Positions 2,330-61,920 of a DNA stretch of 64,000 bases are shown one piece after another. The stretch covers positions 8,575 to 72,574 of the forward strand of contig CAVWGE010000001.1 of NCBI GenBank assembly GCA_963754385.1, in the 5' to 3' direction. Positions within the stretch are counted from its first letter, which is position 1, and each line of letters opens with the position of its first letter. The translations under genes were made by a program, and so were the position numbers. The stretch is from an uncultured Chloroflexia bacterium. Its GTDB lineage: Bacteria > Chloroflexota > Dehalococcoidia > GIF9 > UBA5629. The notes beneath the pieces were generated by a model, which saw nothing but the letters and a program-made list of their open reading frames with translations, was not told the origin of the DNA and ran no database searches.

Positions 2330-2404
<75 letters not shown>

Positions 2405-16362: not shown

Positions 16363-16605
16363 CGAATCGGATACGATTTATATTAATGTCTAGTTAATTT
16401 AAATAAAAATGTGAGGATGATAAGGTGAGCGAACTGTTTCCAACCAAAACAATAGCTATAGAGGTGCTAGGTTGTACTGACGCAACTCGGGATGAGATCT
16501 TATCAAAATTTGTGGTAGAACTAAAATACTCCAAAAGAAAAGGGGGGGGCAAAATGAAATAGTCAGACTAGCTTTAATAAATAGTAAACATACTAAGGAG
16601 GTAAA

Positions 16606-17931: not shown

Positions 17932-18045
17932 TAAGGTGGATTAAGTAGCTGTCAGGGGAGCTTAAGACGATACATCTTAAGCTCCCCTGACGCTAGATAG
18001 GCTGAAGGATTTTCTACACGAGTTTAATATTGACTGGAAAAAGTT

Positions 18046-18762: not shown

Positions 18763-18796
18763 CAATATTCAAACGCTTGTTTTCAAAGTATATGTA

Positions 18797-19534: not shown

Positions 19535-19539
19535 AATGA

Positions 19540-20433: not shown

Positions 20434-20439
20434 CGAACC

Positions 20440-21414: not shown

Positions 21415-21506
21415 AATTAGAAAATTAATAATGTAGTATTATTGACAAAAATTGGATGATAGTATAATTTTAATCTCGGATACCATTATTATGATGGAGG
21501 TGAATT

Positions 21507-36789: not shown

Positions 36790-36826
36790 AAAGCCCCCGG
36801 TTTCTATGCCGGGGCTTTTCCTTTTG
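36790..36826 (+). terminator. Rho-independent terminator (gcccccgg-tttctatg-ccggggc + TTTTCCTTTT)
   Basis: Perfect 8-bp GC stem plus T-run after the MBL gene. Confidence 0.7.
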
Positions 36827-36864: not shown

Positions 36865-37479
36865 CTATTCCTCTGGCCCGGGTTCGAAAGAGGGTGAGGG
36901 AAAAGAAAGTGCTTCGGTTAAAAGATAACTTGCTTGTAGTGCCTCTGTAGGACAAAGTGGAAAGCATTCCTTGCAGTTCCAGCACTCCTTAGAGGCTATC
37001 TCCGGGATGAAACTTATCTCTCGTCTTGCTCCTCTGTCAACAAATCCAATAGCGTTCTTTTTCTTGACTTCAGCACAGTATCTGACACATAGACCACAAA
37101 GAATGCAAAATGAGGACTCTTTTTCAAAACGGCCTTTGTCTGCTCCATACTCTTGAGCCAAATCCTGCAATTCTACGGCATCCGGAGCATGAGCTAGCAT
37201 CAGCTCCAGAAGCACTTTGCGAGTTTTATCTATCTTCTCAGACCTGGTTCTTACTACCAAATTTTGTTCTACAGGGTAAAGGCAGGCAGCAACGAGATTT
37301 GTCCTACCGCGAGCTTCTATTTCTACTGTGCAAATTCGGCAAGCCCCATAAGGTTCTAATTTCTCGTGGTGACAAAGTGTAGGGATATTTATTCCTACAC
37401 TTTGTGCTGCCTCCAAAATGGTCATCCCTTCCCTGGCTTCAACTTCCCTTCCATCAATCTGTAAAATGATTTCACTCAT
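36865..37479 (-). CDS. [2Fe-2S]/[4Fe-4S] ferredoxin-like protein (NuoG / HndD N-terminal domain type)
   Basis: 204 aa. Plant-type 2Fe-2S fold (CHHEKLEPYGACRIC) followed by CxxCxxC..CP cluster motifs. Confidence 0.7.
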   Translation of the reverse strand: MSEIILQIDGREVEAREGMTILEAAQSVGINIPTLCHHEKLEPYGACRICTVEIEARGRTNLVAACLYPVEQNLVVRTRSEKIDKTRKVLLELMLAHAPDAVELQDLAQEYGADKGRFEKESSFCILCGLCVRYCAEVKKKNAIGFVDRGARREISFIPEIASKECWNCKECFPLCPTEALQASYLLTEALSFPSPSFEPGPEE

Positions 37480-37481
37480 CT

Positions 37482-39404
37482 TTATTTACTCTCTCTGGCT
37501 ATAATTCTTGCTTCTTCAGGGATAGGAGGCGGAACAGGCTCGCCAGAAATCTTCTTCGCCGCACCAAAGCGAGGGGGGCAAACTTCAAAGCAAGTTCCGC
37601 ACTTTGTGCATTTCTCCTGGTCAATTACATGGATCTGGTTCTTACCACCTACAATCGCCTCTGCAGGGCATTGCCTGAGACAAATCATGCAAGCCTGACA
37701 CTTCTCGGGGTCGATATAGTATGAGATTAGCGCCTTACACGCGTAAGCCGGACAACGCTTCTCCTTGATGTGTGCCTCATACTCATCTCTGAAGTAGCGT
37801 ATCGTGCTTAGAACCGGGTTGGGGGCAGACTTACCTAAAGCACAAAGTGAGGCATCTTTTGTTACCACGGATAGCTCCTCCAAAAGCTCGATGTCGCCCT
37901 CTCTCCCCTTTCCTTCACTAATATTAGTCAGAATCTTAAGCATCTGCCTGATGCCTTCACGGCAGGGGACGCATTTGCCACACGATTCATCAGCGAGGAA
38001 GTTAAGAAAGTACCTGGCGACATCAATCATACAGGTATCTTCATCCATTACAATCATGCCACCTGAACCCATCATTGAGCCAGCCTTGGCGAGCTCATCA
38101 AAATCGACTTTCATGTCTAACTGTTCCTCAGGGATACATCCTCCGGATGGACCCCCGGTCTGCACTGCTTTGAATCTCTTGCCTCCAGGGATACCACCGC
38201 CTACCTTATAGATAATATCTTTCAGGGTTATGCCCATGGGTACTTCCACAAGGCCGGTATTGTTTATCTTACCTACCAAGGAGAAAATCTTCGTGCCCTT
38301 GCTGCCTTCAGTTCCAAATTGAGTAAACCAGTCAGCGCCTTTATTGATAATAAGCGGCACATTAGCCCAAGTCTCAACATTATTCAAGCAGCTGGGTCTA
38401 TCCCAAATGCCCTTAACGGCGGTGTGGATATACTTCGGTCTGGGCTCTCCTACCTTGCCTTCTATTGCCGTCATCAGAGCGCTCGATTCACCAGAGACGA
38501 AAGCGCCGGCTCCTCGGTGCACTTTAATAGTGAAATCAAAACCTGAGCCAAGGATATTTTCTCCAAGGAGACCATGCTCCTCGGCCTGCTTGATAGCAAT
38601 ACCCACGTTCTCTACTGCCAGGGGATATTCCTGCCGAACGTAAATATAACCCTCATGGGAGCCGATGGCATAGGCTCCCATGGTCAACCCCTCAAGAACT
38701 GAATGAGGGTTCCCCTCGAGAAGGGCTCTATCCATAAATGCCCCTGGGTCACCCTCGTCGGCGTTGACTATCACATACTTTATTTCGTCAGGGGCATTGC
38801 GACATTCCTCCCATTTCTTGCCGGCAGGAAAGCCACCGCCTCCCCTCCCTCTCAGGTTGGATTTTTTGACTTCCTCCAATACTTGCTCGGAGGTCATCTG
38901 GGAAAGAACTTTGGCTAAAGCAGAATAACCACCTAGCGCCAGATAATCATCGATACTTTTAGGATCAATCTTAATGTTATTGCCGATAAGGAGCCGCATC
39001 TGGTTCTTGTAAAAAGGTATTTCATACTCATGTACTGCTTTTTCGCCAGTATTTGGGTCAGTATAAAGCAGGCGGTCAATCACTTTTTTCCCAACTACAG
39101 TCTGAGAGACAATTTCTGGGGCGTCCTCCGGTGTTACCCCTATATAACAGATTTCTTCGGGATAGATAACGACTAGAGGTCCTTTTTCACAAAAGCCGGG
39201 GCAACCGGTTCCTCTAACGTCAACCTTGGTCTTTAAAGCTTGTTTTTCGATTTCTTCTTCAAAGGCACTGATAACCCTGTCACTGCCGAGAGCGAGACAG
39301 CCGGTTCCAGCACATATCGTAATACAGGGTTTGTTTTGGTCTCTTTTGGACAATATTTCTTGCCTGAGTTCTTCCAATTCAGTAGGCGAATTTATCTTTG
39401 GCAT
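37482..39404 (-). CDS. NuoF/HndC-like NAD(P)H-binding flavoprotein with an N-terminal thioredoxin-like 2Fe-2S domain and C-terminal 2x[4Fe-4S]
   Basis: 640 aa. FMN/NADH-binding 51-kDa-subunit motifs (GRGGGGFPAGKKWE; ..NADEGDPGAF..), the SLBB 4Fe-4S site, and C-terminal CxxCxxCxxxCP x2. Confidence 0.8.
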   Translation of the reverse strand: MPKINSPTELEELRQEILSKRDQNKPCITICAGTGCLALGSDRVISAFEEEIEKQALKTKVDVRGTGCPGFCEKGPLVVIYPEEICYIGVTPEDAPEIVSQTVVGKKVIDRLLYTDPNTGEKAVHEYEIPFYKNQMRLLIGNNIKIDPKSIDDYLALGGYSALAKVLSQMTSEQVLEEVKKSNLRGRGGGGFPAGKKWEECRNAPDEIKYVIVNADEGDPGAFMDRALLEGNPHSVLEGLTMGAYAIGSHEGYIYVRQEYPLAVENVGIAIKQAEEHGLLGENILGSGFDFTIKVHRGAGAFVSGESSALMTAIEGKVGEPRPKYIHTAVKGIWDRPSCLNNVETWANVPLIINKGADWFTQFGTEGSKGTKIFSLVGKINNTGLVEVPMGITLKDIIYKVGGGIPGGKRFKAVQTGGPSGGCIPEEQLDMKVDFDELAKAGSMMGSGGMIVMDEDTCMIDVARYFLNFLADESCGKCVPCREGIRQMLKILTNISEGKGREGDIELLEELSVVTKDASLCALGKSAPNPVLSTIRYFRDEYEAHIKEKRCPAYACKALISYYIDPEKCQACMICLRQCPAEAIVGGKNQIHVIDQEKCTKCGTCFEVCPPRFGAAKKISGEPVPPPIPEEARIIARESK

Positions 39405-39413
39405 AATTTTCCC

Positions 39414-39899
39414 TTAATCATAGTTTTTCAACACGTCTTCTATCTTGGTTGGTACTAGCTTTCCGTGATACTTTTTATCGATTACCATCACCGGTCCTAA
39501 AGCACAGCAGCCGAGGCAGTTGACAGTTTCCAGGCTAAACTTCAAATCCAAGTCCGTTTCGCCAGGTCTAATTCCAGTCAGGTCTTGAACCGTGTCGAGG
39601 ACGCGCGGCGCACCGCGAACATGACAGGCAGTACCCATACATATGTGAATTTCATGACGTCCTCTAGGAACTAAGTTAAAAGCTTTATAAAAGGTAGCTA
39701 TATGCTGTATCCGGCTTAAAGGCACTTTTAATTTCTTGCTGACTTTCTTTAATGCTTCCTTAGGAAGCCAGTGATTTTCGCTCTGAATCTCCAGTAATAC
39801 TTGAATTAGTGAACTGGCATCGCCCTGATATTTATTTATAATCTTATCGATTTTATCGTTACCAATAGCCGCTGTCTTAACTTTCCCTTTTTCTTTCAT
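39414..39899 (-). CDS. NuoE/HndA-like thioredoxin-fold [2Fe-2S] protein
   Basis: 161 aa. 'CMGTACHVRG' and 'CLGCCALGP' 24-kDa-subunit cysteine motifs. Confidence 0.8.
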   Translation of the reverse strand: MKEKGKVKTAAIGNDKIDKIINKYQGDASSLIQVLLEIQSENHWLPKEALKKVSKKLKVPLSRIQHIATFYKAFNLVPRGRHEIHICMGTACHVRGAPRVLDTVQDLTGIRPGETDLDLKFSLETVNCLGCCALGPVMVIDKKYHGKLVPTKIEDVLKNYD

Positions 39900-39924
39900 C
39901 TAATCTTGTTCCTTCTCTCTCATC

Positions 39925-40581
39925 TCAGGCGGGAACAAAGCCCTTCTGGATTTTATCGAACCTGACTAATCCTTCCCTTGCTGAACTATTAAGGTATCTT
40001 GATACTTCAGACGGACTTAAGCCTAAAATCTCAGAGATTTCTCCAGTTGAAAGGGGTCTTTCTCGCAGGAGTGACAAAATTTGGCTTATTGTCAATTTAT
40101 CTACAATTAATTCGCGGAATAATCTATTCACCTCGTCACTGGCGAAAAATTCGTTATATTCATCTTCCGTATCAAAACGTACTCTCAGCCTCTCCCTTTC
40201 CACCAGCTTAATGTAGGGGACTAAGTTTCTAACCGCTTCAAGTTTTAACTTTAATCCTTTTTTATCTATTCCTTCGCCTATGCCAAGTGGTCCTAACTCC
40301 TTAATCTTCTTGATAAAATCATTGACAACTTCGGCGAAACGGATTCCTTCACCGGAAGACATAAATTCGATCCTTAACCTTTCCGGGTTTATCCCTATGT
40401 GCTCCATTAATTTTTTACATAATAGCACCATGTTTAATGCATGGTAGTTTCCATCGGTAATATAATTACATTCATTTAAATGGCAACCACCAATAAACAC
40501 CCCGTCTGCTCCATTTGAGAAGGCTCTGAGTACAAATTCCAGGTCGACTCTGCCGGTGCACATGACGCGAATAAGCCTCAT
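39925..40581 (-). CDS. MvhD-like (methyl-viologen-reducing hydrogenase delta subunit) protein fused to a C-terminal winged-helix domain
   Basis: 218 aa. MvhD FlpD-type motifs (CTGRVD...GADGVFIGGCHLNECNY) plus a C-terminal HTH (LSTGEISEILGLSPSEVSRYL). Confidence 0.7.
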   Translation of the reverse strand: MRLIRVMCTGRVDLEFVLRAFSNGADGVFIGGCHLNECNYITDGNYHALNMVLLCKKLMEHIGINPERLRIEFMSSGEGIRFAEVVNDFIKKIKELGPLGIGEGIDKKGLKLKLEAVRNLVPYIKLVERERLRVRFDTEDEYNEFFASDEVNRLFRELIVDKLTISQILSLLRERPLSTGEISEILGLSPSEVSRYLNSSAREGLVRFDKIQKGFVPA

Positions 40582-40732
40582 TTCAGTTGTATATTGCAGT
40601 CTGGAAACTCCAGCCAGGTCAGCAGCGCCGTATACTCACCAATGGCATACAAAGCCCAATATTCTTGGTTTAAACTCGACTCCTGTACTCATTCGTATCT
40701 CCCTTTTAAATCGGTAATTCCTGCTTTTTTCA

Positions 40733-43700
40733 TTAGTGGACTTCTACGAGGGCTGGAACCTTCTCAATGGCCGGAACCGCCGCGTCAATTTGGCTTAAGA
40801 TCTCTTCATTGGTATAGTGCTTCAGTGAAATAGCCGCTGTTGGACACTTTGCGTTACACAGACCATCTCCTTTACAGAGAACAGGATTAACCGTGGCTTT
40901 TCTGCCTTGTGGTGTATCGTGAAATTCTATAGCACCATACGCGCAAGCTGAGATACATGCCCCACACGAAATACACTTACTCTCATTCACCTCGCAAACA
41001 GAACCTGAGGCTGTGAATGTATCACGTGAGAGAAGCGTTAAGACCCGGCCGGCAGCTCCATAAGCCTGGCTAACCGCCTCAGATATATGTTTTGGATAGT
41101 GAGCCGTTCCACACAGGTAAACGCCGTCAGCACCGAAGTCAACAGGTCTTAATTTGACATGGGCTTCTTTGAAAAAATCATCCGGTCCTAAAGAGACCCT
41201 GAATAATTGAGATAGTTCTTTGTTTCCTGCGGAGGGAATAGCAGCGGCAGCTAAAGCGAGCGAATCAGCATCTATAGCAACTTTTTTGCCTAAGATAGGG
41301 TCGGTCACGGTAACCCTCAGAATAGGCTGACCTCCCTCTTCAACGGCTTCCACCTGGGGTTTATCATCCGGCTCATAGCGGATGAACTTCACTTCCCGGT
41401 TCGCCGCTTCCCGGTAATAATCCTCACTAAACCCATACGTTCTCATGTCCCGAAAGAGAATGTAAATATCCATTTGGGGGTTTATCTCTTTTAGTTTCAA
41501 GGCGTTCTTTATAGCCTGGCTACAACATATCCGGGCGCAGTAATTTCTATCTTCCTGTCTGCAACCCACACATTGAATCATCACCAGACTCCGGGAGTTA
41601 ATCAGCCTTTCTTCTCTTTTGGCGATTTTCTCCTCCAATTCCAGTTGGGTCATTACCTTGTCATCTTCCCCATAAAGGTATTCGGTGGGTTTATATTCTT
41701 CAGCACCAGAAGCGATGATGGTTGCTCCATGCTTTATTTCGGTGACCCTTCCTTCGGATTTCACCTTGGTTATGAAATTCCCCACGTAACCGGAAGCCTC
41801 TGTGATGGTAGCATCAGTATATACATGTATTAAGGGGTGCTGATAAACTTTGCGTATAAGGTCACGCAAATATGCTTGAACATCCAGCCCTTCCAGAGTG
41901 TAATGAATTCTTCGAGCCATTCCCCCCAGTTCTGTATCCTTTTCCACCAGGTAAACCTCGTGTTCCTGGTTGGCTATGGAGAGAGCACAAGTCATGCCGG
42001 CTATACCCCCACCAACCACTAATGCCCTTTTATCGACCGGCAAATCGAATTCCTGTAAGGGCTCCAAACGGCAAGCTCGGGCTACCGACATCCGGATTAT
42101 ATCCTTTGCCTTTTGTGTGGCATCTTCCTTTTCTCGAGAGTGAACCCAGGAGCAATGTTCTCTAATATTAGCCATGTCGTAGTAATATTGATTAATTCCC
42201 GCCTCCCGAAGGGTATCCCGGAATAAAGGCTCAAGGGTCTTGGGGCTGCAGGCAGCGACAACCACTCGATTGAGACCTTTTTCCTTTGTCATGTCTGTTA
42301 TTTCTTTGGCAGAATTAGTAGCACATGAAAATAGCTGTTCCTGAGCGTAGACAACATTGGGTAAGGTTAAGGCATATTCAACTGTGGAAGGAACATCTAC
42401 CACTCTTCCGATATTAGCCCCACAATGACACACAAAGACCCCTATCCTTGGTTCCTCTTTGGAGACATCTCTTTCCGGAGGGTATATCCTTTCTTTGGTC
42501 AGCTTTCCTCGCCGGTAGTCAAGGAGTTCACCACATTGGGAGCTAGCTCCGCTGGCGCTAAAAACCGACTCGGGAATATCCATAGGACCCCGGAAGGCTC
42601 CGCTTATAAAAATTCCCGGGCGCGAGGTCTCTATCGGATTAACGGGATTGGTTTTACAGAATCCGTAAGAATTGAGCTCGATGCCGAACTTATCAGCCAG
42701 ACCCTTCACATCAGCAGGAGGATTCAATCCAACGGATAATACAACAAGGTCGAATTCCTCCTCCTTTACTCCATCCTCAGTAGTAGAATATCTTATGCTT
42801 ACATTCTTGGTTTCCGGGTTCTCTTTTCCTAAGGATACGTAGCTTCTTATAAATCGGACTCCGGGAAGTTTCTCTGCTCTTTGGTAGAATCGCTCGAAAT
42901 CCTTGCCGAATGACCGGATATCGTTATGGAATATAGTACATTGGGCATCAGCGTAATGGTCTTTTGTCAAAATAACCTGTTTCTGGGTATACGTGCAGCA
43001 TACGGCTGAACAATAGCTGTTACCGCCCGGGATAACTTGTCTGGAGCCGACGCACTGAATCCAGGCTATTTTATGTGGATGCTTCTTGTCGGAAGCACGC
43101 AGTATCTCACCTTCGTATGGCCCGGTGGCGCATAATAGCCGTTCATAGTCCATACTGGTTACCACGTTCTGCATCTTTCCGTAGCCATATTCATCCCTCA
43201 GCTTAGGATCAAATGGCTCAAGACCAGGAGACAGAACTACGGCACCTACTTTTAGTTCTAACTTCTCCGGCTTCTGATTGAAATCTATGGCATCATTCTT
43301 ACAGACTCCTACGCAAATGTTACATTTTTTGTCTTTAAGGTAGAGGCAGCTTTCATCTATATAAGTGATAAGGGGAATTGCTTGAGCGAAGTATATATGG
43401 ATGGCTTTACTCTTCGATATTTCTTGATTAAACTGATCAGGGTATTGGACCGGGCAGTATTCTACACAGGTAGTACAACCCGTGCATTTGTCCTCTATAA
43501 TGTATCTGGGCTTTCTAATCAGCGTTACCTTGAAGCTTCCTGCCTCCCCTGCTACACTGTCAACTTCAGTATAAGGCAGTACCTCTATATTGGGATGCCG
43601 GCCGACCTCGACCAGTTTAGGTGAGAGTATTCACATGGAGCAGTCATTGGTGGGAAAGGTCTTGTCAAGCTGAGCCATATGGCCGCCAATGGCAGGTGAT

Positions 43701-43849
43701 TTCTCAACCAGGTAAACCTTATAACCCGCCGTGGCAAGATCAAGGGCTGCTTGAATACCGCTGATTCCTCCACCAACAACCATGACATCTCCAAAATTGC
43801 CGTCTGCAAGACTTTTAATGAGCTGTCCTTCAACTGTTTCCTTTTCCAT
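40733..43849 (-). CDS. hdrA: HdrA-like heterodisulfide-reductase subunit A flavoprotein, tandem and very large, with an in-frame UGA (selenocysteine) at 43631..43633
   Basis: Six-frame ORFs 43631..43849 and 40733..43174 are in the same frame, separated by a single TGA. The peptide reads ...[28 protein letters not shown]..., the conserved HdrA CSM(C/U)IL motif. The N-terminus has the FAD GGGISG motif. Ferredoxin inserts ([12 protein letters not shown]) and a second GxGxxG (VVGGGIAGM) lie downstream. Confidence 0.7.
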
Positions 43850-43882
43850 TTTTCTCCGTCCTTATCTGATTTCTTTGCTTCT

Positions 43883-45085
43883 CTAAATCGCTTCCTGGAT
43901 GATCTCTGTGATGTCTTTAATCTCCAGGGATTCACTATCCTTCAGGGTTAACCTGCTATCCTCAAAATTGACGATGCAATATGGGCAGGAAGTAACCAGC
44001 ATCTCAGCCCCGACCCCAACAGCTTGCTCTAATCTGAGGTCGGAGAATCTTTCACCCTTTGGAGTGTCCATCCAAATCCCGCCTCCTCCACCGCCGCAAC
44101 AGAGACTATCTTCCCGCGAATCAGCCATCTCAATCAGTTCTAGACCGGGTACCTTCTTCAGGACCTCTCGGGGTTCGTCGTATATGCCATTATGCCGACC
44201 CAGGTAACATGGGTCATGATAAGTAATTTTCTTACCGTACTCCTTGGTGAGCTCAAGCCTTCCCTCATTAATAAGCTGGAATAAATATTGGGAGATATGA
44301 ACCACCTCAAACTTTGCCTTAAATTCGGTATACTCGTTTGTGAACGTGTGGTAGCAATGAGGCGAAGAAACAAGGATTTTTTTCACTCCATTATCGATAA
44401 AAGTTTTGATGTTTTCCCTGGCTAAGCGTTTGAATAATTTCTCATCGCCCGTCCTGCGGATGCTTTCTCCACAGCAGTTCTCCTTGGAACCCAGTATGCC
44501 AAAATCTACACCTGCCCTGTTAAGGATATTAGCTGTGGCAGTAGCCACCTTTTTTAATCTTGAGTCATAGCTGGGGTAGCAGCCGGGAAAATACAAAATT
44601 TCCATCCCCTCGGTGAACGTTTTTACAGACAGACCGTTTGCCCAATCCCCCCTCTTTTCTCGTGATTCACGCAAGGGGTTGCCTTCGGCAGCCAGGCTTA
44701 CATTTACGGTGTGGATTGGAGCAGGAGAAATCCCTGCTTCCGAGGCAATCCTGCGAAATGATACACTAACATCTATCGTTCCTACTCCCCTGGGGCACCG
44801 CTGCGGGCACCTTCCGCAGGTAGTACAGCGCCACATATCTTCGCCTTCTATCTCAGGCAAACCGAACGTAGCCTGCCTGACTATGTTGCGCATACTAAAT
44901 TTTCTAACCCTGTTCCACGGACAAACAGTATCACATAATCCGCATTGATAGCATAATTTGAAGGCTTCTCCGCCAGCCTCTTTTATGGCATCTATTGCCT
45001 CTTTGAAGGGTGCTACAGTCTCCACTATCTTTTTAATCCTCTTCTTTCGCCTTAATGTTTTAGCCCTTCTTTGACATTCGGGCAA
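43883..45085 (-). CDS. HdrD / GlpC-like iron-sulfur protein (2x[4Fe-4S] plus two CCG domains)
   Basis: 400 aa. CxxCxxCxxxCP x2 near the N-terminus. CCG-type cysteine clusters (..CCGES..; ..CCGGGGG..). Confidence 0.7.
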   Translation of the reverse strand: MPECQRRAKTLRRKKRIKKIVETVAPFKEAIDAIKEAGGEAFKLCYQCGLCDTVCPWNRVRKFSMRNIVRQATFGLPEIEGEDMWRCTTCGRCPQRCPRGVGTIDVSVSFRRIASEAGISPAPIHTVNVSLAAEGNPLRESREKRGDWANGLSVKTFTEGMEILYFPGCYPSYDSRLKKVATATANILNRAGVDFGILGSKENCCGESIRRTGDEKLFKRLARENIKTFIDNGVKKILVSSPHCYHTFTNEYTEFKAKFEVVHISQYLFQLINEGRLELTKEYGKKITYHDPCYLGRHNGIYDEPREVLKKVPGLELIEMADSREDSLCCGGGGGGIWMDTPKGERFSDLRLEQAVGVGAEMLVTSCPYCIVNFEDSRLTLKDSESLEIKDITEIIQEAI

Positions 45086-45587
45086 CGGTATCTATTATCT
45101 TCTCCAAGCCATATTTATTTACCATTGTTTCCAATCCTATCTCCATCTCCTCCAGCTTCTCCTCTTCTTTCTCTTCCTCTTCCCTTTCTTCGTAAGTCAG
45201 GGCATCAGATAAGCACCACTGAACACACATCGGCTCTGATAGTGGCGGATCGCTTTCACACATGTCGCATTTTAGAGGGAGACTGGAATCGGGCTCTTTG
45301 AAAAGCGTCCTGGATGGGCAGGAAGCCCTGCAGAAGTCACACTCGTCATATTCCTTTCCATCAAGCACATATTTGTCTCTGCCAGTGCATTCGGCTTTAG
45401 TATACTCACCTGCCTGTACAGGAAGATATAAGTCTTTTAGTGGCTCATGAATCAGCCGAATGCGAGACCTCTCCGGATTGTTGCTGCTATATTTTGGCGA
45501 AGCGTGAAAGGCGGAGCAGACTACCTCACATGCCCGGCAACCATTGCATTTATCAACATCGATCTTGATCACCTTGACTTTTTTCAT
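45060..45587 (-). CDS. Poly-[4Fe-4S] ferredoxin (AorA-like electron-transfer subunit)
   Basis: 175 aa with several CxxCxxCxxxCP / C-rich motifs. Translationally coupled to the AOR gene. Confidence 0.65.
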   Translation of the reverse strand: MKKVKVIKIDVDKCNGCRACEVVCSAFHASPKYSSNNPERSRIRLIHEPLKDLYLPVQAGEYTKAECTGRDKYVLDGKEYDECDFCRASCPSRTLFKEPDSSLPLKCDMCESDPPLSEPMCVQWCLSDALTYEEREEEEKEEEKLEEMEIGLETMVNKYGLEKIIDTVARMSKKG

Positions 45588-47587
45588 TTTTTAGCATCCT
45601 TCTTCGTTCTAGGTTTTTGCTGACCTTTTCCGTTTTCGAAGATCCCTCTCTGTTCAAAGTCTTCGGCAATGTAATCCAAACCTAATTCGTGTAGTGCCTC
45701 TTTAGTAGGAATACCGTCGTTATTCCACCCCCTGAATTTGTAATACGCATCTAAAAGCTGAGTCTCGAGCTCGGGAAATCTTTTCCTCCAATGGTCTTCC
45801 GGTGGCTTCTCATCAGCTCTTCTCAAGCCTCTTCTTACATTAATGGCTCTAATCAGATTTCGGTTCCTTCTATATACTTGCTTGAGACCGGCTTCATCCA
45901 TATCGATACCGGTGGCCGCAGAGATAAAAGTCGGCAAATTGTGTATATGATAAGGAGGCTTCAAGGGGAATGACGACAAACCGGCGCATATCCCGGTGGC
46001 GTCATCAAGGTAGTGCATCATCTCTTGCCAGTCAACAATGTCAACGGACATGTCAACAGTTGGGTAATATGGATTTGATTTTTCTCCGCGTAGTTCCCAG
46101 TCCAGAAGATATTGCTTAAACTTTTCATCAGGAACCTGGATCCAATCCTTTACAAAGTCTTCTCTCTCCTCCATGGTAGGGAAAGGCGACTGTGGGAACT
46201 GGCCTTCAATTTGGGTAATGTTTATCTTCTCGCCGGTAGAATACATAAGGAAATAAACTGGATTCAGCATTCCCAGCTTGAGAGGCAACTGCTCATGTTT
46301 CTTAATATTATTATGAGCAAATTCTTCCGCACCCTTGCCAATCTTTTGGGCTGCCCAATGAGTGCCATTGGCTAAAACATCTCCTATCCCTTCTCGCCGC
46401 ACAATTCTATCGAGTAACCAGTAAAATCTACCCTCGTTATCCGACGGGCATCCGGCAAAGTCCGCGCCAGTCAAAATACCGGCTTCATAAAGCTCGACGG
46501 CGAAGGCCATAACTTGCGGCGTTGAGAATCCGTCCACTCCATATTCCGTGGCACGTTGCGCGATTCTAAAACCAAAATCCAGGTCTGAAAAGGCCGCCAT
46601 GGTATAAGTAAGTTTCGAGAAGCATTTCATCATGTAGGTCGAAATTCCGGGGACGGAAACTATAGCCCCGCATTTCATGGGACAGTTATAGCAGCTTATT
46701 AGCCGCGTCCGCACATTTAGCTGAGTTTCCTTCCACTTTTCCTCGACTTCCTGGGTCCAAAACTCCTTGTTCCGGACGCGAGAATTTCCCCAAGAGAAAT
46801 TCTCAGTGTGCCACTTCTCATCAACAAGTTTCATCTCTTGCGGTGACCCAAGCCCCGCCAAAATGGGCATTACCCCCGGAACTGGCTTTTCTTCTCGGGC
46901 ACGTATATATTTCAACACTTCGTTGCAAAGCTCAATAAATTCATCCGGTCGGGCAAGATTAATGTCCTTTGTTCCGTGAACAGCTATCGCTTTTATTCCT
47001 TTGTCTCCCATAACGGCGCCTAATCCAAGGCGGCTGGCACTGGACCTACCTTGCTCGATGGAAGCCATATAGACCCTGTTTTCACCGGCCAGGCCGATAG
47101 CTGCCACCTGGGCGTTCGGCTCCTTCAACTCCTGTCGAATAAGCTCCGCAGTTTCATTAGCGCCTTTACCACGGAGATGACTGGCATCACGTATTTCTAC
47201 TTTGTCATTGTGTATCCACAAATAAATCAGATTGGGGGACTTGCCACGAAAGATTACTTTGTCATATCCGGCATACTTCAATTCCGGTGCCCAAAATCCC
47301 CCCATCATTGAATATCCCATTAACAAAGTCTGAGGAGAATAGGAAGTAACCATGGTACGATTAGCACCAGTAGCAGGTGTGCCACATAAAAGACCGGTGC
47401 TGAATATCAGTAGATTATCAGGAGAAAAGGGTTCGGTTTCAGGGGGAACCCTATCCCATAATATCTTGGCGTTAGTACCCAGACCCCCGAGATGAAGTTC
47501 GGTTAATTTTGGGTCAGTTGTTACTCTTTCAATGTTTCCCCGCGATAGATCAATTTCTAAGTTAAACCCTGTCTCTGCGTATCTCAT
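45584..47587 (-). CDS. aor: Tungsten-type aldehyde:ferredoxin oxidoreductase (AOR family)
   Basis: 667 aa. AFOR N-terminal and tungstopterin-binding domains, with strong similarity in 'GGLGTNAKILWD...GLLCGTPATGANRTMVTSYSPQT...GGFWAPELKYAGYDKVIFRGKS'. Confidence 0.8.
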   Translation of the reverse strand: MRYAETGFNLEIDLSRGNIERVTTDPKLTELHLGGLGTNAKILWDRVPPETEPFSPDNLLIFSTGLLCGTPATGANRTMVTSYSPQTLLMGYSMMGGFWAPELKYAGYDKVIFRGKSPNLIYLWIHNDKVEIRDASHLRGKGANETAELIRQELKEPNAQVAAIGLAGENRVYMASIEQGRSSASRLGLGAVMGDKGIKAIAVHGTKDINLARPDEFIELCNEVLKYIRAREEKPVPGVMPILAGLGSPQEMKLVDEKWHTENFSWGNSRVRNKEFWTQEVEEKWKETQLNVRTRLISCYNCPMKCGAIVSVPGISTYMMKCFSKLTYTMAAFSDLDFGFRIAQRATEYGVDGFSTPQVMAFAVELYEAGILTGADFAGCPSDNEGRFYWLLDRIVRREGIGDVLANGTHWAAQKIGKGAEEFAHNNIKKHEQLPLKLGMLNPVYFLMYSTGEKINITQIEGQFPQSPFPTMEEREDFVKDWIQVPDEKFKQYLLDWELRGEKSNPYYPTVDMSVDIVDWQEMMHYLDDATGICAGLSSFPLKPPYHIHNLPTFISAATGIDMDEAGLKQVYRRNRNLIRAINVRRGLRRADEKPPEDHWRKRFPELETQLLDAYYKFRGWNNDGIPTKEALHELGLDYIAEDFEQRGIFENGKGQQKPRTKKDAKK

Positions 47588-47630
47588 TTTTTACTCCCTT
47601 AGGTTACTAGGCTCTAAATAACCCTTCTGT

Positions 47631-48482
47631 TTAAGCCCTCCTTGCGCCTCGGTAGTTCTTGCATACTGAGTCGAAGTATTCATTGGCTTTCTCGGTAAGC
47701 GAATCGTGGTATTCATCAAATAGAGCAGCTGCCTGGGGACGCAACCAATTCTCGGGCAAAAGCTCTTGGGGCAAATCGGGATCAAAGAAGGGGAATTTCC
47801 GGTATTCATGAATTAGCTTGAATCTTTCCACAAAACACTCGCTGGGTTCAATAGTTTCTCCGGCCTGTAATCGTTTCAGGTGCCCTTCTAGCTTCGGGCG
47901 ATACTCAGTCAGGAAATCAGCATACTTCTGGTGTATCTTGCCCAGTTCCCAGCAGCGGGAGACGATCTTCCTTGGGTCAGTATTGCCCTGATGTTGGGCG
48001 CTGAAGACATGAACATATTCCTCGATATTGAGTTTCTGCAACAGGTTCTTCACCTCTCTGGTTCGGTCATAGGGTGAAATCCAGGTAGCCTCGCCTAGAG
48101 CCCCGTAGCCCATCCAGCCCAGCTCAAGGCGCAACCTGTCCCTTGTCTCCCGCATGCGTTCCGGTATGGAGTAGGTAACAATATTCCAGTTGCCATCCCA
48201 GTGGGATGCCTTGCGCTGGAAAATGCGCTGTGCTCCCTCGGTCAGTAAGCTATGCCCCTCACTGGTCAGCGAGTAGTAGCTTTTACGGCTAGTACGCTTT
48301 GCCTTCAGGAGACCAGAACGGCACATCCTTGAAACCGCTGATCTGATAGCCTGTTCCGACAGGCCAAAATTGCTGAGCACTCTGACCAGACTACCAATCC
48401 CGATCTCACCACCCCTATGCAGCACGTAATCACCATAGAGGGTCAGCATGGCTGCTCTAGGACGAAACACAGTATGTCTCAT
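47631..48482 (-). CDS. paaX: PaaX-family transcriptional regulator
   Basis: 283 aa. N-terminal winged helix plus the PaaX C-terminal domain (..LTLYGDYV..GIGSLVRVLSNFGLSEQAIRSAVSRM..). Confidence 0.7.
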   Translation of the reverse strand: MRHTVFRPRAAMLTLYGDYVLHRGGEIGIGSLVRVLSNFGLSEQAIRSAVSRMCRSGLLKAKRTSRKSYYSLTSEGHSLLTEGAQRIFQRKASHWDGNWNIVTYSIPERMRETRDRLRLELGWMGYGALGEATWISPYDRTREVKNLLQKLNIEEYVHVFSAQHQGNTDPRKIVSRCWELGKIHQKYADFLTEYRPKLEGHLKRLQAGETIEPSECFVERFKLIHEYRKFPFFDPDLPQELLPENWLRPQAAALFDEYHDSLTEKANEYFDSVCKNYRGARRA

Positions 48483-48772
48483 GTTCGGTATGGCGTTAAT
48501 TTCACGCTATATTAATATTATCATTTACCTACTGCCTTGTCAAGCTTCCAAAAAGCCCTGTTAATAGTAGCATCCTCAGTCTGCTCCCATCTACCCGCTG
48601 TGCTCTCGAGATTGTTTAGTGATTCTTTAAAAAATTATTTGAACCGGAGCTAGCCAGCCAGCCTTAAAGGTGTTATATTTAGAGAAAGCTGGAGGTCCCA
48701 TAAAGTTGGACAATGGGTAGGTTATGCTAGAGACAGCACTTTGACCAACCTCATATAAATTACGGAGGTAAA

Positions 48773-49525
48773 ATGTCAAAAGATAGAAGCGTGGAGTGGG
48801 TTGAATATACAAAGGTAAATGCAGAAGTCACTGAGGCTAAGGAAAGAGTAGTAACAGAACTTGGTTTATCAATTATCATAAACGGAAGGCATTTTGCCAC
48901 AGCGATGATAACGCCTATGATGGAGAAGGAGTTTATCATCGGGCATCTATTTGGGCAGGGAATTATAGAAAATATTGTCGACATAGAATCAATAATAGTA
49001 AAAGATAATATAGCTGAGGTAACTTTGCCCAAGAAAGAAGATAAGGCAAAATGGTCTCCGGAAATACATTCTGATTTTAAGGTTAGTAGAGAAGATATAT
49101 TCGACGGTGTCAACGCGATCCTAAAATCTAAAATATATGCCGAAACCGGAGCCATACATTCAGCTGGACTGTTTAAACGAGGGGCAGAACCAATTTGCAT
49201 AGCAGAAGACGTTGGAAGGCACAATGCACTAGACAAAGTGATAGGCTATGCATTGATTAATAAGATTGATTTTAGAAATACATTTGCGGCCTCAACCGGA
49301 AGGATGGTCTCTGACATGGTGTCAAAGATTTGCCGAGCGAATATTCCAATTGTGGCGACAAAGACTGCGGTAACAAAGTTGGGAGTCGAAATTGGTGAAA
49401 GGTGCGGATTGACGATTATAGGATTTGTAAGGGATATAGGGATGAAGATTCCCACAGATACGGATGTAAGAATTACAACTGAGAGAGAAATGAAAATTTA
49501 CACAAATCCCAAAAGAATACTTTGA
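48773..49525 (+). CDS. fdhD: FdhD-family sulfurtransferase (Mo/W-cofactor maturation)
   Basis: 250 aa. 'GRHNALDKVIGYA' FdhD signature. Confidence 0.7.
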   Translation: MSKDRSVEWVEYTKVNAEVTEAKERVVTELGLSIIINGRHFATAMITPMMEKEFIIGHLFGQGIIENIVDIESIIVKDNIAEVTLPKKEDKAKWSPEIHSDFKVSREDIFDGVNAILKSKIYAETGAIHSAGLFKRGAEPICIAEDVGRHNALDKVIGYALINKIDFRNTFAASTGRMVSDMVSKICRANIPIVATKTAVTKLGVEIGERCGLTIIGFVRDIGMKIPTDTDVRITTEREMKIYTNPKRIL

Positions 49526-54472: not shown

Positions 54473-55933
54473 TTAGCAGACAAAGAGAGGCTGTTCACCG
54501 ATTTTGGCCAGCTTCTCTGCCAGCCGCTTTTTGTGCTCGAGATTGGCCCGCCGCTCAATCATAATTCTCTGCGCCTGTGGTGAGCCGGCACCATGCATGG
54601 ACTCGACCAGTGCAGTACCGCAAGTCGTTGCCTCAAGAAGGCGAATCAGCCGCATCCTGGTCTCGGTAGGTACATCGGCAACGCCCTTCATGTATTTATC
54701 CACATATTTACCGACCCTTGGGTCTTTCCAATCCATCTCCGAGGGCGCGGTGGCTAATATGCCGCCGGCGATGTCCTGGGCTAGCCTGGCGATTTCATAG
54801 ACATGGCGGGTAACGTTTAGTTTGGTAACATTAGCCAGCAGTGGGTCAGCCATGTATGAGCCGGCAGGTAAAGCATAACCCTGGCAGGAACAGGCTATGG
54901 AGCAGCAGTAAAGGGTCTCTGTCAGGTGAACCATCTCCACCAGCTTGTCCCTGATGTGTGAAGCCCGGTCAGTTCCCTGGGCTTGTGCCAGCGCGTAACT
55001 GGCGCCAATGAGAGTATCAGCCAGGCCGGTCTTGCAGCCACCGTAATTCTGGCGGTGAGCGGTGGCAAACCTCTCCACCAATTCGTAAGCAAACTCGTAT
55101 TCCCCGCACATGAAGACGTGCTCCCAGGGAACGAAGGTCTTGTCGAAGATAATCAGTGCCTCGCCACCAACTATGCCGTAGTCCACATTGCCCTGGTCAA
55201 GAAAGCAGTCGCACTTTCGCGCATCGTTGGTCTGCCTTCCGAAGATGTGTATTACCCCGGGTGCATCAACAGGCACGTAGAAGCAGACTGCATAGTCGGC
55301 GTCCTCCGCTTTCATGGCAGCCGTAGGCATCACCAGGTGCCCATGTGAATTAACGGCTCCGGTAATGTGGGCTTTGGCGCCGCTGACCACGATGCCGTCC
55401 TTCTTCTTTTCCACCACGTGCACATAGAGGTCGGGGTCTTTCTGCTTGCTTGGTGACAGACGGCGGTCACCTTTTACGTCGGTCATAGCCCCTGAAATCA
55501 TAAGGTCTTTTGATTGCACTTCCTTAAGAAAGTTGACCAACCGCTTGTGATAGTCAGTGCCCATTTTCTGGTCTATTTCATAGGTAATAGAATAGACCGA
55601 ATTGAGTCCATCGTGACCAACGCATCGCTGAAAGCAGCTTCCTGTCTGCTGACCAAGGGCGCGCATCATCTTGACCTTTTTCACCAGGTCATCGTGGCTG
55701 TGATGTATGTGCGTGTAGCGGTTGATTTTTTCACCTGTAAGATGTGAAGTAGTCGATAATAACTCCTCGAATTCCGGTGCCAACGCCATATCATAAGTGA
55801 GCGCTGCGGCATTAACATGAGGCACGAAGGCAGGATGGTCAACCACGCTCTCAATCTTCTCACCCAGATAGTAGATTTCGGGCTTTAGCCTCCTTAAGCT
55901 TTCCCGATATTGCTTTCCCGTCATCATACTCAT
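54473..55933 (-). CDS. 4-hydroxybutyryl-CoA dehydratase / 4-hydroxyphenylacetate 3-hydroxylase family protein (HpaB/AbfD fold)
   Basis: 486 aa. Family-typical length and N-terminus (GKQYRESLRRLKPEIYYLGEKIE...). Confidence 0.6.
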   Translation of the reverse strand: MSMMTGKQYRESLRRLKPEIYYLGEKIESVVDHPAFVPHVNAAALTYDMALAPEFEELLSTTSHLTGEKINRYTHIHHSHDDLVKKVKMMRALGQQTGSCFQRCVGHDGLNSVYSITYEIDQKMGTDYHKRLVNFLKEVQSKDLMISGAMTDVKGDRRLSPSKQKDPDLYVHVVEKKKDGIVVSGAKAHITGAVNSHGHLVMPTAAMKAEDADYAVCFYVPVDAPGVIHIFGRQTNDARKCDCFLDQGNVDYGIVGGEALIIFDKTFVPWEHVFMCGEYEFAYELVERFATAHRQNYGGCKTGLADTLIGASYALAQAQGTDRASHIRDKLVEMVHLTETLYCCSIACSCQGYALPAGSYMADPLLANVTKLNVTRHVYEIARLAQDIAGGILATAPSEMDWKDPRVGKYVDKYMKGVADVPTETRMRLIRLLEATTCGTALVESMHGAGSPQAQRIMIERRANLEHKKRLAEKLAKIGEQPLFVC

Positions 55934-59614: not shown

Positions 59615-60811
59615 TTACTTAAGCTGCTCTCGTGAATAGTCGAGGATTCGTCGTGCTACTACAAGCATGTTAATCTGGCCGGTGCCTTCGAAGATATCAT
59701 TTATCTTGGCATCACGCATCCACTTCTCCAGTAGATATTTCCTGGAGTAGCCCAGCGGCCCCATAAGCTCAACCGCCTTCTGGGTTATTTTGGTGACGGC
59801 AAGTCCGGCTTTCGCTTTGGCCATTGACGCTTCAAGGTTATTAGGCAAAAACTGTCCCATCATCCATAATGAACGCAACGTCAGCAGTTTAGCCGCCTTG
59901 TAATTGGCTTCCATATCCATAACATCCCGCTCCAGAGTGCTGAGCTTCTGCCGCGGCAAGCCATAGCGAATTTCTATGCCTTCCTTCTCCAGTGTTTCCT
60001 TGATGAAATCCAGCGCAGCCCGTCCCACACCCAAAGCCATGGCAGCAACAATGGGTCGCGTGGCATCGAAGGTAGCCATCGCCTTCTTAAAGCCGGCGGT
60101 TCCGGTCTTATCTATTTTCCTAACTTCAGGGCTGCCCAGTATGTTTTCAAAGGGAATGCGGCAATTATCGAAAACTATGGTAGCCGTATCACTAGCCCTG
60201 ATTCCCAGCTTTTTCTCTAGCTTCTCCACTTTTGCTCCCGGAGTTCCAGCCGGCACCACAAATGACTTCATACCTGCACGTCCTGCTGATTTGTCCACGG
60301 TGGCCCAGACTACCACCAGACTTCCCGGTCCTTCCATAGCTCTTTTCCCCCAGGTTATGAATATCTTCTCGCCGTTGAGCACCCATTCGTCGCCATCGCG
60401 TACTGCGGTGGTGGTTATAGCGGAAGTGTCCGAGCCGCAACCGGTTTCTGTCATCGCCATAGCACCCCATTTCGGCCCACCCTCGTTGTAGGTGCCCAGA
60501 AAACGTTGTATCTGCTCTTGTGTCCCGGTGGCGAAAATAGCCGCACCTCCCAACCCCGGAGTCGGAACACACAGATAAAAGCCGGCATCGCCCCAGCAGG
60601 CTTCCTCCACCCTTAATGCTGCAGTCAGGTCTAAACCCGCGAATAAACTGCCTTCTGCTCTTTTCTCCCACAGCTTGTCAATGACTTCCTGCGGGCTCTC
60701 ATGCTCATGTTCGTCATAGTAGCGACTTATAGGGCGAAATAGCGCTTGGGCAACTTTGTGTGCTGTTTCAACTGCTTCTTTTTGTTCCGGTGTAAGTTCA
60801 AAATCTATCAT
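59615..60811 (-). CDS. Acyl-CoA dehydrogenase
   Basis: 398-aa ACAD fold, second gene of a tandem pair. Confidence 0.75.
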   Translation of the reverse strand: MIDFELTPEQKEAVETAHKVAQALFRPISRYYDEHEHESPQEVIDKLWEKRAEGSLFAGLDLTAALRVEEACWGDAGFYLCVPTPGLGGAAIFATGTQEQIQRFLGTYNEGGPKWGAMAMTETGCGSDTSAITTTAVRDGDEWVLNGEKIFITWGKRAMEGPGSLVVVWATVDKSAGRAGMKSFVVPAGTPGAKVEKLEKKLGIRASDTATIVFDNCRIPFENILGSPEVRKIDKTGTAGFKKAMATFDATRPIVAAMALGVGRAALDFIKETLEKEGIEIRYGLPRQKLSTLERDVMDMEANYKAAKLLTLRSLWMMGQFLPNNLEASMAKAKAGLAVTKITQKAVELMGPLGYSRKYLLEKWMRDAKINDIFEGTGQINMLVVARRILDYSREQLK

Positions 60812-60825
60812 TACCTTGCCTCCTT

Positions 60826-61920
60826 CTATACGATAGCCATGCCATCAAAAGTGGCAAAGCCTCGACCGTTCCTGAGCCACAGCTCGACCGGGTGGTCTCG
60901 AACATAACCGTGTCCACCCAGTATCTGCACGGCGCGGTCGGTCACCATTAAAACCATGTCGTCAGCATACATTTTTACTACTGAAGCCTCTTTGCATGTC
61001 TCTTCATTTCGGTCCAATTTCCAGGCAGCCTCCCAGACCATCAACCTGGTGGCATCGATTTCAATTGCCATCTCTGCCAGCATGAAGGCGATAGTCTGTC
61101 GAGCCGCAATTGGCTCGCCGAAGGCAACACGTTCCTTGGCATAGTCCCTTGAATACTCAAAGGCAGCTCTGGCTACTCCCACAGCCATCGCCGAGAGTGC
61201 TACCTGTGAGCAATTCATAATACGCACAAAATCACATCCCTTTTCGCCACCCAGCCGATTCTCCTTAGGTACACGGCAGTTCTTCAGGCTGAGCTCGTAG
61301 GTGGCTAGAGCTTTTATTCCCATGTTCTTCTCTCGTTCGCCCATCTCCAGCCCCTTTGTGCCTTTTTCGATGATGAAGCCCTGGGTGCTGCCTTTTTCAG
61401 CCGCATAGACCAGCAAGAGGTCGGCATTCGCAGCCAGAGGCACGTAGCATTTCTCACCGTTAAGCACGTAGCTATCGCCGTCAGGTCGAGCAGTGGTTGA
61501 AAGAGAGTAGGGGTCGAAACCGAAGCGTGGCTCGATGAGGGCGGCGGTAGCGGTTCTGTACCTCTCGTCGCTGAAAGCCGGCAGGTATTTCTTCTTCTGC
61601 TCCTCAGTGCCCATCTCGAGAATAGGACAAACCACCAGAGCGGGACAGAGGATGTGCATAGCCATCGACAGGTCGCCCCAAGCCAGTTCCTCAGCGATGA
61701 GCCCACCGGTGATTGCTGAGTGCTCGCCGCCAAGTCCTCCGTACTTCTCAGGTATGCTGGTGGAGACAAGTCCCAGCTTCCAGGCGGTATTGATTACGGA
61801 GGCAGGAATCTCACCGCTTTCGTCGCACTCCCTGTATACTTTCCTCATCTCGTCGTTGGCAAACTGGTTCACCATCTTCACGATCATTTGCTGTTCTTCA
61901 CTCGGACTAAACGAGAGCAT
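60826..61920 (-). CDS. Acyl-CoA dehydrogenase
   Basis: 364-aa ACAD fold (..GGHGYVRDHPVELWLRN..). Confidence 0.75.
   Translation of the reverse strand: MLSFSPSEEQQMIVKMVNQFANDEMRKVYRECDESGEIPASVINTAWKLGLVSTSIPEKYGGLGGEHSAITGGLIAEELAWGDLSMAMHILCPALVVCPILEMGTEEQKKKYLPAFSDERYRTATAALIEPRFGFDPYSLSTTARPDGDSYVLNGEKCYVPLAANADLLLVYAAEKGSTQGFIIEKGTKGLEMGEREKNMGIKALATYELSLKNCRVPKENRLGGEKGCDFVRIMNCSQVALSAMAVGVARAAFEYSRDYAKERVAFGEPIAARQTIAFMLAEMAIEIDATRLMVWEAAWKLDRNEETCKEASVVKMYADDMVLMVTDRAVQILGGHGYVRDHPVELWLRNGRGFATFDGMAIV

Follow-up and report, generated by a model that had tools for sequence, protein, structure and literature searches.

The stretch of DNA analyzed here, called the window throughout, comprises 64,000 nucleotides (nt) of contig CAVWGE010000001.1 (assembly GCA_963754385.1), from an uncultured Dehalococcoidia-like member of the Chloroflexota. 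Nine of its genes, at positions 36865 to 48482, very probably form an operon for a class II benzoyl-CoA reductase, the ATP-independent enzyme that contains tungsten and selenocysteine (Sec). The operon has the composition bamBCDEFGHI and is headed by a PaaX-family gene. The class II enzyme is a Bam[(BC)2DEFGHI]2 complex (PMC12096430; PMC13328260; bioRxiv 10.64898/2026.04.10.717634). It has been purified and solved by cryo-electron microscopy (cryo-EM); reviews date its description to 2005-2019. Crystal structures of BamBC are available for the complex of Geobacter metallireducens GS-15 (4Z3W-4Z40), and the enzyme was also purified from Desulfosarcina cetonica. It is thus an enzyme already discovered, purified and structurally solved, not a new one. 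Its importance lies in the ATP-independent breaking of the aromatic ring in strict anaerobes, at a potential below that of ferredoxin, through two coupled flavin-based bifurcation modules. The window carries the eight subunits in the order B-C-D-E-F-G-H-I, which is also that of G. metallireducens, together with the conserved catalytic and cofactor residues and two conserved Sec codons. It differs from the Geobacter and Desulfosarcina systems in its Chloroflexota host. The presence of a complete BamB-I set in uncultured Chloroflexota supports anaerobic aromatic degradation by these abundant sediment bacteria. The nine genes, in order of transcription, are:

48482..47631 (-), paaX-like regulator, 283 aa from ATG 48482, 279 aa from GTG 48470 being more likely
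47587..45584 (-), bamB, tungsten catalytic subunit of the aldehyde oxidoreductase (AOR) family, 1163 bits to 4Z3W_A
45587..45060 (-), bamC, electron-transfer subunit with three [4Fe-4S] clusters, 175 aa, overlapping bamB by 4 nt
45025..43883 (-), bamD, HdrD/HdrBC-like, 380 aa from GTG 45025, two [4Fe-4S] motifs and two CCG domains
43849..40733 (-), bamE, fused, domain-permuted double HdrA flavoprotein, 1038 aa, Sec73 at TGA 43633..43631
40692..39925 (-), bamF, MvhD-like [2Fe-2S] adaptor, 255 aa, Sec19 at TGA 40638..40636, C-terminal winged helix
39899..39414 (-), bamG, NuoE/HydC-like [2Fe-2S] subunit, 161 aa, NuoE/HoxE family matches
39404..37482 (-), bamH, NuoF/HydB-like subunit, binding FMN and NAD(H) by homology, 640 aa, HydB-type matches
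37479..36865 (-), bamI, similar to the N-terminus of NuoG/HydA, [2Fe-2S] and [4Fe-4S], 204 aa, family matches

The catalytic module was identified by a search of all PDB sequences. BamB of the window matched 4Z3W_A with 1163 bits and 73% identity, gapless over residues 1-652, and BamC matched 4Z3W_E with 260 bits and 63% identity. These two chains are BamB and BamC of the crystallized G. metallireducens class II benzoyl-CoA reductase. True AORs reached at most 211 bits, with query 3-418 as the best-matching stretch. With the main BamB of Geobacter metagenome-assembled genomes (MAGs) the window protein shares 82-84% identity, but with their tandem paralogues only 50-58%. Cys322, through which the protein ligates tungsten, occurs in BamB and YdhV and is missing from the aldehyde-oxidizing clades (PMC12096430). 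A 2025 review names Glu251, His255, Glu257 and His260 as the invariant Zn/proton-relay site of BamB (PMC12096430). C322, E251, E257 and H260 are all present in the window and are invariant in 78 BamB homologues taken from genome loci. We take the Glu of the "DYE" motif of WOR5 to be the catalytic Glu of P. furiosus AOR. Thr329 of window BamB aligns with this residue (6x6u), so that the AOR-type Glu is replaced; this agrees with the published view that BamB has lost second-shell residues conserved in aldehyde-oxidizing AORs (PMC12096430).

The partners of BamB agree with the Bam complex down to single residues. BamD contains PF02754 twice and Fer4 families, with CCG motifs at residues 184 and 309; it also matches HdrD, TfrB and CCG families and is 65-97% identical to bamD of relatives. 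BamE matches HdrA in three permuted segments: the HdrA N-terminus aligns with residues 459-619, the TrxR-like core with 23-390 and the C-terminus with 845-1025. In Geobacter, BamE is a fused HdrA dimer with domain permutation, as seen by cryo-EM, and its Cys59-Cys62 pair adjoins the bifurcating FAD (bioRxiv 10.64898/2026.04.10.717634). Alignment to a Geobacter-MAG BamE places C70-x-x-U73 of the window at this pair, codon 73 being a TGA within the motif C70-S-M-U73 (C-S-M-U-I-L-S-P-K). Lys290, in CCTYTQK, lies near the expected Lys280 position. BamF has a TGA at codon 19, in the motif C-H-W-U, carries PF02662 and a C-terminal PF01022 (ArsR-type winged helix) and matches MvhD and VhuD families. 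Sec19 of Geobacter BamF was seen by cryo-EM, and the winged helix-turn-helix extension of that protein contacts BamI (10.64898/2026.04.10.717634). BamG matches NuoE/HoxE families at E = 1e-41 to 1e-39 and is 67-82% identical to bamG of relatives. BamH has full-length matches of 757-801 bits to bifurcating HydB-type subunits (8a6t_B, 7t2r_B), that to HydB 8a6t_B giving 757 bits over residues 1-611. It harbors an N-terminal 2Fe-2S domain, a C-terminal 2x[4Fe-4S] domain and Asp219 (in NADEGD219PG), a residue whose role is described for the Geobacter enzyme (10.64898/2026.04.10.717634). BamI matches NuoG, HoxU and FeFe-hydrogenase N-terminal families, has 12 Cys and is 71-81% identical to bamI of relatives. 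Common to the window and to Geobacter Bam are therefore Cys322, E251, E257 and H260 of BamB, the two CCG domains of BamD, the fused double HdrA of BamE with its C-x-x-C/U pair, Sec19 and the winged helix-turn-helix of BamF, and Asp219 of BamH.

The open reading frame (ORF) listing and translations place the nine ORFs, all on the minus strand, at exactly 36865..48482. This bears out the first-pass annotation of this DNA, which had described nine co-directional genes with tight or overlapping junctions; these range from -4 to +43 nt and are, in transcription order, +43, -4, +34, +33, +40, +25, +9 and +2 nt. Its domain calls (AFOR, poly-ferredoxin, HdrD, Sec-HdrA, MvhD, NuoE, NuoF, NuoG-N and PaaX) were recovered by family matches as well. 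It had placed the PaaX-type gene at the end of the operon; since all nine genes are on the minus strand, that gene is the first of the array and not the last. A purine-rich ribosome-binding site lies ahead of most of the nine genes. The starts of homologues point to GTG 45025 as the most likely start of the HdrD-like bamD, and bamF starts at 40692, not at ATG 40581 of the plain ORF call, which is affected by the in-frame TGA at codon 19, a second one beside that of the Sec-HdrA already annotated.

The same annotation had proposed a novel bifurcating oxidoreductase for aldehydes or carboxylic acids, possibly aromatic (phenylacetaldehyde/phenylacetate), coupled to NAD(P)H and ferredoxin. The catalytic subunit does belong to the AOR/WOR superfamily, real bifurcating tungsten AORs with NuoEFG-like modules exist (PMC13328260; 9mqx), and the adjoining gene is of the PaaX family, whose characterized members sense phenylacetyl-CoA. 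However, the identity to BamB is 73% over the full length, true AORs give matches five times weaker (no more than 211 bits against 1163), the Cys322 tungsten ligand is present and Thr stands in place of the conserved Glu. In addition, the seven partners match BamC-BamI one for one and share the published details of BamE, BamF and BamH, while an Hdr module is missing from the Class IV WORs, which consist of five subunits. Position 255 of BamB aside, the locus agrees with class II benzoyl-CoA reductase in the defining features that can be examined in sequence, and it disagrees with AOR and WorLSABC. We therefore regard an aldehyde oxidoreductase as very improbable and, at the sequence level, as already refuted; the supposed novelty is the known Bam enzyme. 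Two premises of the proposal fall as well. Hdr-type modules were said not to be coupled to AOR-family enzymes, which the purified and cryo-EM-solved Bam enzyme contradicts, and the view that a simple FAD subunit is all that AOR complexes carry has been overtaken by Class IV WorLSABC (PMC13328260; 9mqx). What stands is the joining of a tungsten subunit, an HdrA/MvhD bifurcation core and a NuoEF(G) module, and with it bifurcation or confurcation with ferredoxin and NAD(H), as known for Bam. The hint drawn from PaaX was right in pointing to aromatic acyl-CoA metabolism and wrong as to an aldehyde or acid substrate, the ring of an aryl-CoA being indicated instead.

Some observations weigh against the assignment to benzoyl-CoA reductase. 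Window BamB has Val255 where the review's invariant His255 would be expected and where the Geobacter enzyme has His. BamR/Dch, BamQ/Had and BamA/Oah were not found among the window ORFs of at least 140 aa, and ETF (electron-transferring flavoprotein) genes were not found in the 64 kb. SECIS-like (selenocysteine insertion sequence) hairpins after the two TGA codons are no stabler than shuffled sequence (z = -0.68 and -0.46), and an Rfam search returned no SECIS family after either codon. The first of these observations is weakened by the comparison of the 78 BamBs (77-86% identical), of which 26 have His at position 255, 23 Val, 13 Thr, 8 Ile and 8 another residue. With His in only 26 of 78, Val255 is normal for the family and the word "invariant" fails for residue 255; His255 is doubtful as a family-defining residue. 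The difference in this proton-relay region could nevertheless suit a Bam-type reductase whose job is other than benzoyl-CoA reduction in benzoate catabolism, acting on a substituted or different aryl-CoA, or running mainly in reverse, with the aromatization of a dienoyl-CoA providing a sink or a source of electrons. Reversibility has been described for class II enzymes, and reverse dienoyl-CoA aromatization has been proposed for fermenting and syntrophic bacteria. The window lacks BamR/Q/A, yet has an aryl-CoA ligase, two CoA-transferases, an enoyl-CoA hydratase and an old yellow enzyme; the family of the adjoining regulator senses phenylacetyl-CoA; and a near-identical strain has divergent bamBC (73% and 80% in amino acids) beside bamD-G at 96-99%, which suggests module exchange. 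Against such a job, BamB groups with the main orthologues (77-86% across phyla) and not with the 50-58% paralogues, all residues named catalytic are present, and the absence of pathway genes from a 64-kb window says little about the whole genome. We consider it unlikely. Far less credible still, and practically negligible, is the possibility that bamE and bamF are pseudogenes broken by stops in a decaying, non-functional cluster. Each has one in-frame TGA, with no significant SECIS-like fold and no Rfam SECIS family, but within the CSM-C/U and C-x-W-C/U motifs the TGAs occupy precisely the place of the Cys or Sec. Of 52 relatives from several phyla, 43 have TGA at the BamE position and 8 have Cys (TGC/TGT); at the BamF position 41 of 46 keep TGA, again with Cys in the others. 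The reading frames run intact for 965 (BamE) and 236 (BamF) codons beyond the TGA, to normal ends, and Sec19 was seen in the Geobacter cryo-EM structure (10.64898/2026.04.10.717634). Because the SECIS evidence is weak, the Sec assignment is based on how well the TGAs are conserved and on the Sec19 published for Geobacter, and by these the in-frame TGAs of bamE and bamF are read as Sec codons and not as lesions.

The Cys form of the BamE pair (motif DCSMCIE), carried by the Geobacter MAG loci examined, is the minority, with 8 of 52 relatives. The window differs from those loci in having Sec, the commoner residue among relatives. Given this Sec majority at the second position of C-x-x-C, a selenenylsulfide, not a disulfide, would form in most organisms.

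Comparison with other systems places the locus next to, but apart from, two known groups. Class IV bifurcating WorLSABC enzymes are made up of five subunits and lack an Hdr module (PMC13328260). Those of Acetomicrobium mobile and Eubacterium limosum (both WOR1; PDB entry of the class, 9mqx) share with the window the tungsten subunit, the poly-ferredoxin and a NuoEFG/HydABC-like module, 9mqx_B and window BamH matching with 759 bits. However, they are aldehyde oxidizers without HdrA, HdrD or MvhD, without Sec and without a Cys tungsten ligand, and their large subunit matches window BamB with only 204 bits (best stretch query 10-418). In the window, unlike in WorLSABC, HdrD-, HdrA- and MvhD-like genes stand between the LS-like and the ABC-like genes. 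The MvhAGD-HdrABC complex of methanogens (5ODC, 8RVU) has in common with the window the HdrA core, the MvhD adaptor, a CCG subunit and the CSMC/U motif in the same place. By comparison, BamE is two HdrA units fused and permuted, and BamD binds no heterodisulfide, according to the Geobacter structure (10.64898/2026.04.10.717634). The low-potential electron would go to a tungsten enzyme, not to free ferredoxin, and the input would be of the HydBC-like NADH/ferredoxin type, not a hydrogenase. From Geobacter Bam itself the window differs in that a PaaX-family gene heads the operon, with a divergent fdhD upstream and no bamA, bamQ or bamR nearby.

The mechanism was transferred by homology from the G. 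metallireducens enzyme, and from it we infer the electron path, the substrate and the acceptor. NADH and reduced ferredoxin would feed BamGH, with HydBC-type confurcation at FMN, and BamI and the BamF adaptor would relay the electrons to the bifurcating FAD of BamE. The high-potential "downhill" electron may then pass to BamD and on to an acceptor, which is ETF in Geobacter. The low-potential "uphill" electron may pass through the inserted ferredoxin domain of BamE and BamC to the tungsten metallopterin of BamB, where benzoyl-CoA (E°' about -620 mV) would be reduced to cyclohexa-1,5-diene-1-carbonyl-CoA. Benzoyl-CoA is the presumed exact substrate, by analogy to the characterized enzyme.

The cluster is widely distributed. 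A BamB scan with one genome per species gave 596 relatives, and the best 80 of these (77-86% identical) were compared for synteny by tblastn with all nine window proteins. Represented among them are Thermodesulfobacteriota (Syntrophaceae, Desulfomonile, Desulfatiglans), Geobacter and Syntrophorhabdus, and also Chloroflexota, Acidobacteriota and Bacillota; bamB in Dehalococcoidia MAGs has been reported before (PMC10570749). The window organism is not one of the species representatives, and no identical BamB sequence turned up in the assembly collection; its RpoD and PaaX proteins have "Chloroflexi bacterium" and "Dehalococcoidia bacterium" MAGs as their nearest named neighbors. In most of the best 80 loci bamBCDEF are co-linear wherever the contig is long enough, and bamGHI follow directly in about 14. 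Gene order is also kept in most of 84 contigs recovered through PaaX homologues, so that synteny in related genomes, which the first-pass annotation had suggested as a check, speaks for the cluster. The arrangement is far beyond chance, and its recurrent co-linearity makes the cluster a common, conserved module.

Two variants of the cluster were found. Contigs nearly identical to the window occur in the JGI Ga0315280-Ga0315284 sediment series. The JGI sediment contig L085 (Ga0315282_10001189) has 92-97% DNA identity to the window over 19 kb. Its positions 9461-14627, compared with 45584-49524 of the window, carry an additional 1.7 kb between paaX and bamB and have lost the 5' half of fdhD (window 48651-49143). 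An insertion sequence element was considered for the 1.7 kb and rejected, since a MobB and a radical-SAM protein are encoded there instead. At the protein level, the bamB and bamC of this contig reach no more than 73% and 80% identity, although bamD-G are at 96-99%, which suggests that the BamBC catalytic module and cofactor-maturation genes are exchanged between close strains. In the other variant, carried by most close PaaX-linked relatives (L081-L084, L092, L100, L119 and others), bamGHI do not follow bamF. In these relatives BamF is a FlpD-ferredoxin fusion of 230-242 aa without the winged helix. It is followed by a 677 aa CCG-domain protein in L082, L083 and L119, and then by an ETF gene in L082 and L083. 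By its gene content, this GHI-less cluster is a second architecture of the enzyme, and its ETF linkage fits the recent proposal that the high-potential acceptor is ETF. Structural work may be aided by these comparative data, namely the variability of His255, the usual Sec in the BamE pair, and the BamF-ferredoxin fusion, CCG protein and ETF genes that replace BamGHI.

The regulatory part is the only element of the locus that was not found in the literature. The features flanking the nine genes are:

48543..48515 (-), sigma-70-like promoter, TTGACA, 17 nt, TAATAT with TG extension, the best minus-strand match in the region
48511..48489 (-), inverted repeat TATAGCGT-GAAATTA-ACGCCATA, directly past the -10 box, candidate operator
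36814..36795 (-), GC-rich hairpin followed by a T-run, CCCCGGCATAGAAACCGGGG GCTTTTTGTG, 50 nt past the bamI stop
48773..49525 (+), fdhD-family sulfurtransferase/chaperone gene, divergent from paaX, PF02634 and TIGR00129

A sequence scan found no terminator-like site between the genes, including paaX and bamB, and a hairpin after bamI. The hairpin and T-run at 36814-36795 are the likely operon terminator, and the nine genes are predicted to form one transcript, from the promoter at 48543-48515 to this hairpin.

The PaaX-like protein matches PF07848, PF20803 and PF08223 (PaaX, PaaX_M and PaaX_C), all above cut-offs, and E. coli PaaX (8a39) at E = 3.6e-36. It thus has the same three domains as PaaX of E. 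coli and Pseudomonas (8A39; TIGR02277), and both stand with an operon that metabolizes aryl-CoA. There are 825 PaaX homologues at E <= 1e-20, the 120 listed being 78-95% identical. Relatives do not conserve the first ATG of the paaX ORF, at 48482, several having AAG or AGG in its place. GTG 48470, four codons further on, is conserved in relatives and preceded by (A)GGAGA, so that the real start of paaX is probably 48470. In a metagenome scan, bamB was next on the same strand in 49 of 60 contigs with at least 1.5 kb after a close PaaX homologue, and fdhD was divergently upstream of paaX in 30 of 51 relatives. Four contigs, which represent three of the PaaX homologues, have the divergent fdhD and then paaX-bamB-C(-D)-E-F, except that the fourth, L084, was compared from paaX onward and has the paaX-bam order without a separately called bamD. 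Among the best 80 BamB loci, however, paaX is adjacent in only four, three from Chloroflexota and one from Acidobacteriota, and the linkage is therefore lineage-specific.

The 170 nt ahead of paaX were aligned for the window and 44 distinct relatives. Conserved in the 45 regions are TTGACA and, 17 nt on, GATAATAT. The inverted repeat TATAGCGT-N7-ACGCnATA follows directly after GATAATAT, and its arms are invariant in the window and the 44 relatives. This is the sole good copy of the palindrome in the 64 kb. A second copy, as a sign of a regulon, was not found there, the other hit having 2 mismatches and being within chance. The palindrome is a candidate operator of the PaaX-like repressor, or alternatively a hairpin of the 5' untranslated region. 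The operator of E. coli PaaX is TGATTC-N27-GAATCA, and characterized PaaX proteins respond to phenylacetyl-CoA. E. coli PaaX autoregulates by promoter occlusion, which fits the position of the candidate operator at the transcription start here. The PaaX-like protein may act as an autorepressor on the palindrome over the transcription start, released by an aryl-CoA, most plausibly benzoyl-CoA, and this would make paaX-bamBCDEFGHI an autoregulated operon.

Several points speak against such a role. The TIGR02277 score of 258.3 bits is just below the equivalog cut-off of 264.55, the E. coli box TGATTC-N27-GAATCA had no match with spacers of N24-30, and we purely infer both which effector the PaaX-like protein would sense and where it would bind. 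No paaABCDE-type genes are present in the window. In contrast to E. coli PaaX, the gene lies upstream of, and co-directional with, the bam genes, has no paa genes nearby and is preceded by a 7-nt-spaced palindrome instead of the E. coli box. We put forward only tentatively, as a proposal whose chances are slightly below even, that this widespread Dehalococcoidia-like sediment lineage has a dedicated PaaX repressor, re-tuned from phenylacetyl-CoA to benzoyl-CoA, which binds TATAGCGT-N7-ACGCWATA, an operator not described before, at the start of transcription of an autoregulated paaX-bamBCDEF(GHI) operon. The locus thus contributes a regulatory hypothesis that can be tested, namely that a repressor of the PaaX type goes with the conserved palindrome. 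If true, bam genes outside the Geobacter systems would for the first time have a regulator assigned to them, and a PaaX-family member would for the first time be linked with a pathway of anaerobic ring reduction. Full-text searches gave no joint mention of PaaX and BamB, and PaaX together with benzoyl-CoA reductase appeared only in two reviews of the phenylacetate pathway.

The fdhD gene (48773-49525) matches PF02634 and TIGR00129 above cut-off. In other lineages, at least 11 bam clusters also have an FdhD gene that separates bamD from bamE; four of these were checked with Pfam, and examples are L013 (13795-14475), L044, L071 and L086. This recurrent linkage suggests a role of FdhD in maturation of the BamB tungsten cofactor. 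It was considered as a new observation and rejected as such, FdhD in a bam cluster having been noted already for strain ORM2a (PMC13101534).

Other genes of the window may take part in related metabolism. A second candidate island for aromatic or alicyclic acid metabolism was found at 6086-24221. Its minus-strand genes encode an isochorismatase, an aryl-acid CoA ligase related to (2,3-dihydroxybenzoyl)adenylate synthase, two family III CoA-transferases, an enoyl-CoA hydratase, an old-yellow-enzyme flavoprotein, an amidohydrolase_2 and a MarR-type regulator. They are followed by a five-gene branched-chain-type ABC importer and a molybdopterin aldehyde oxidoreductase of 904 aa, which reaches 921 bits to NF045668, below the cut-off of 1100 bits. 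The enoyl-CoA hydratase (11923-12831) and the ligase (7503-9185) match generic or other families only, and a benzoate-CoA ligase equivalog was not found in the window. An HpaB-family protein and two adjacent acyl-CoA dehydrogenases are encoded at 54473-55933 and 59615-61920 (-). In anaerobes the HpaB family includes 4-hydroxybutyryl-CoA dehydratase, and the best matches of the dehydrogenases are acryloyl-CoA reductase and cyclohexane-1-carbonyl-CoA dehydrogenase, both below cut-off. These proteins may act in a lower pathway for ring-derived acyl-CoAs.

An ORF of 217 aa (6825-7478, -) aligns only with positions 23-167 of the C-5 cytosine DNA methylase profile, which has 324 positions, and is probably a truncated remnant. 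At the start of the window (1-3654) lies part of a bacterial 23S rRNA gene, its 3' 2264 nt, after which no 5S rRNA was detected; tRNA-Met(CAT) follows at 2330-2404. On the opposite strand, 2476-3654 is a tyrosine-recombinase (phage integrase) gene, and G+C falls from 0.54 to 0.43-0.46 across the next 20 kb. An integrated element beside tRNA-Met(CAT) is possible.

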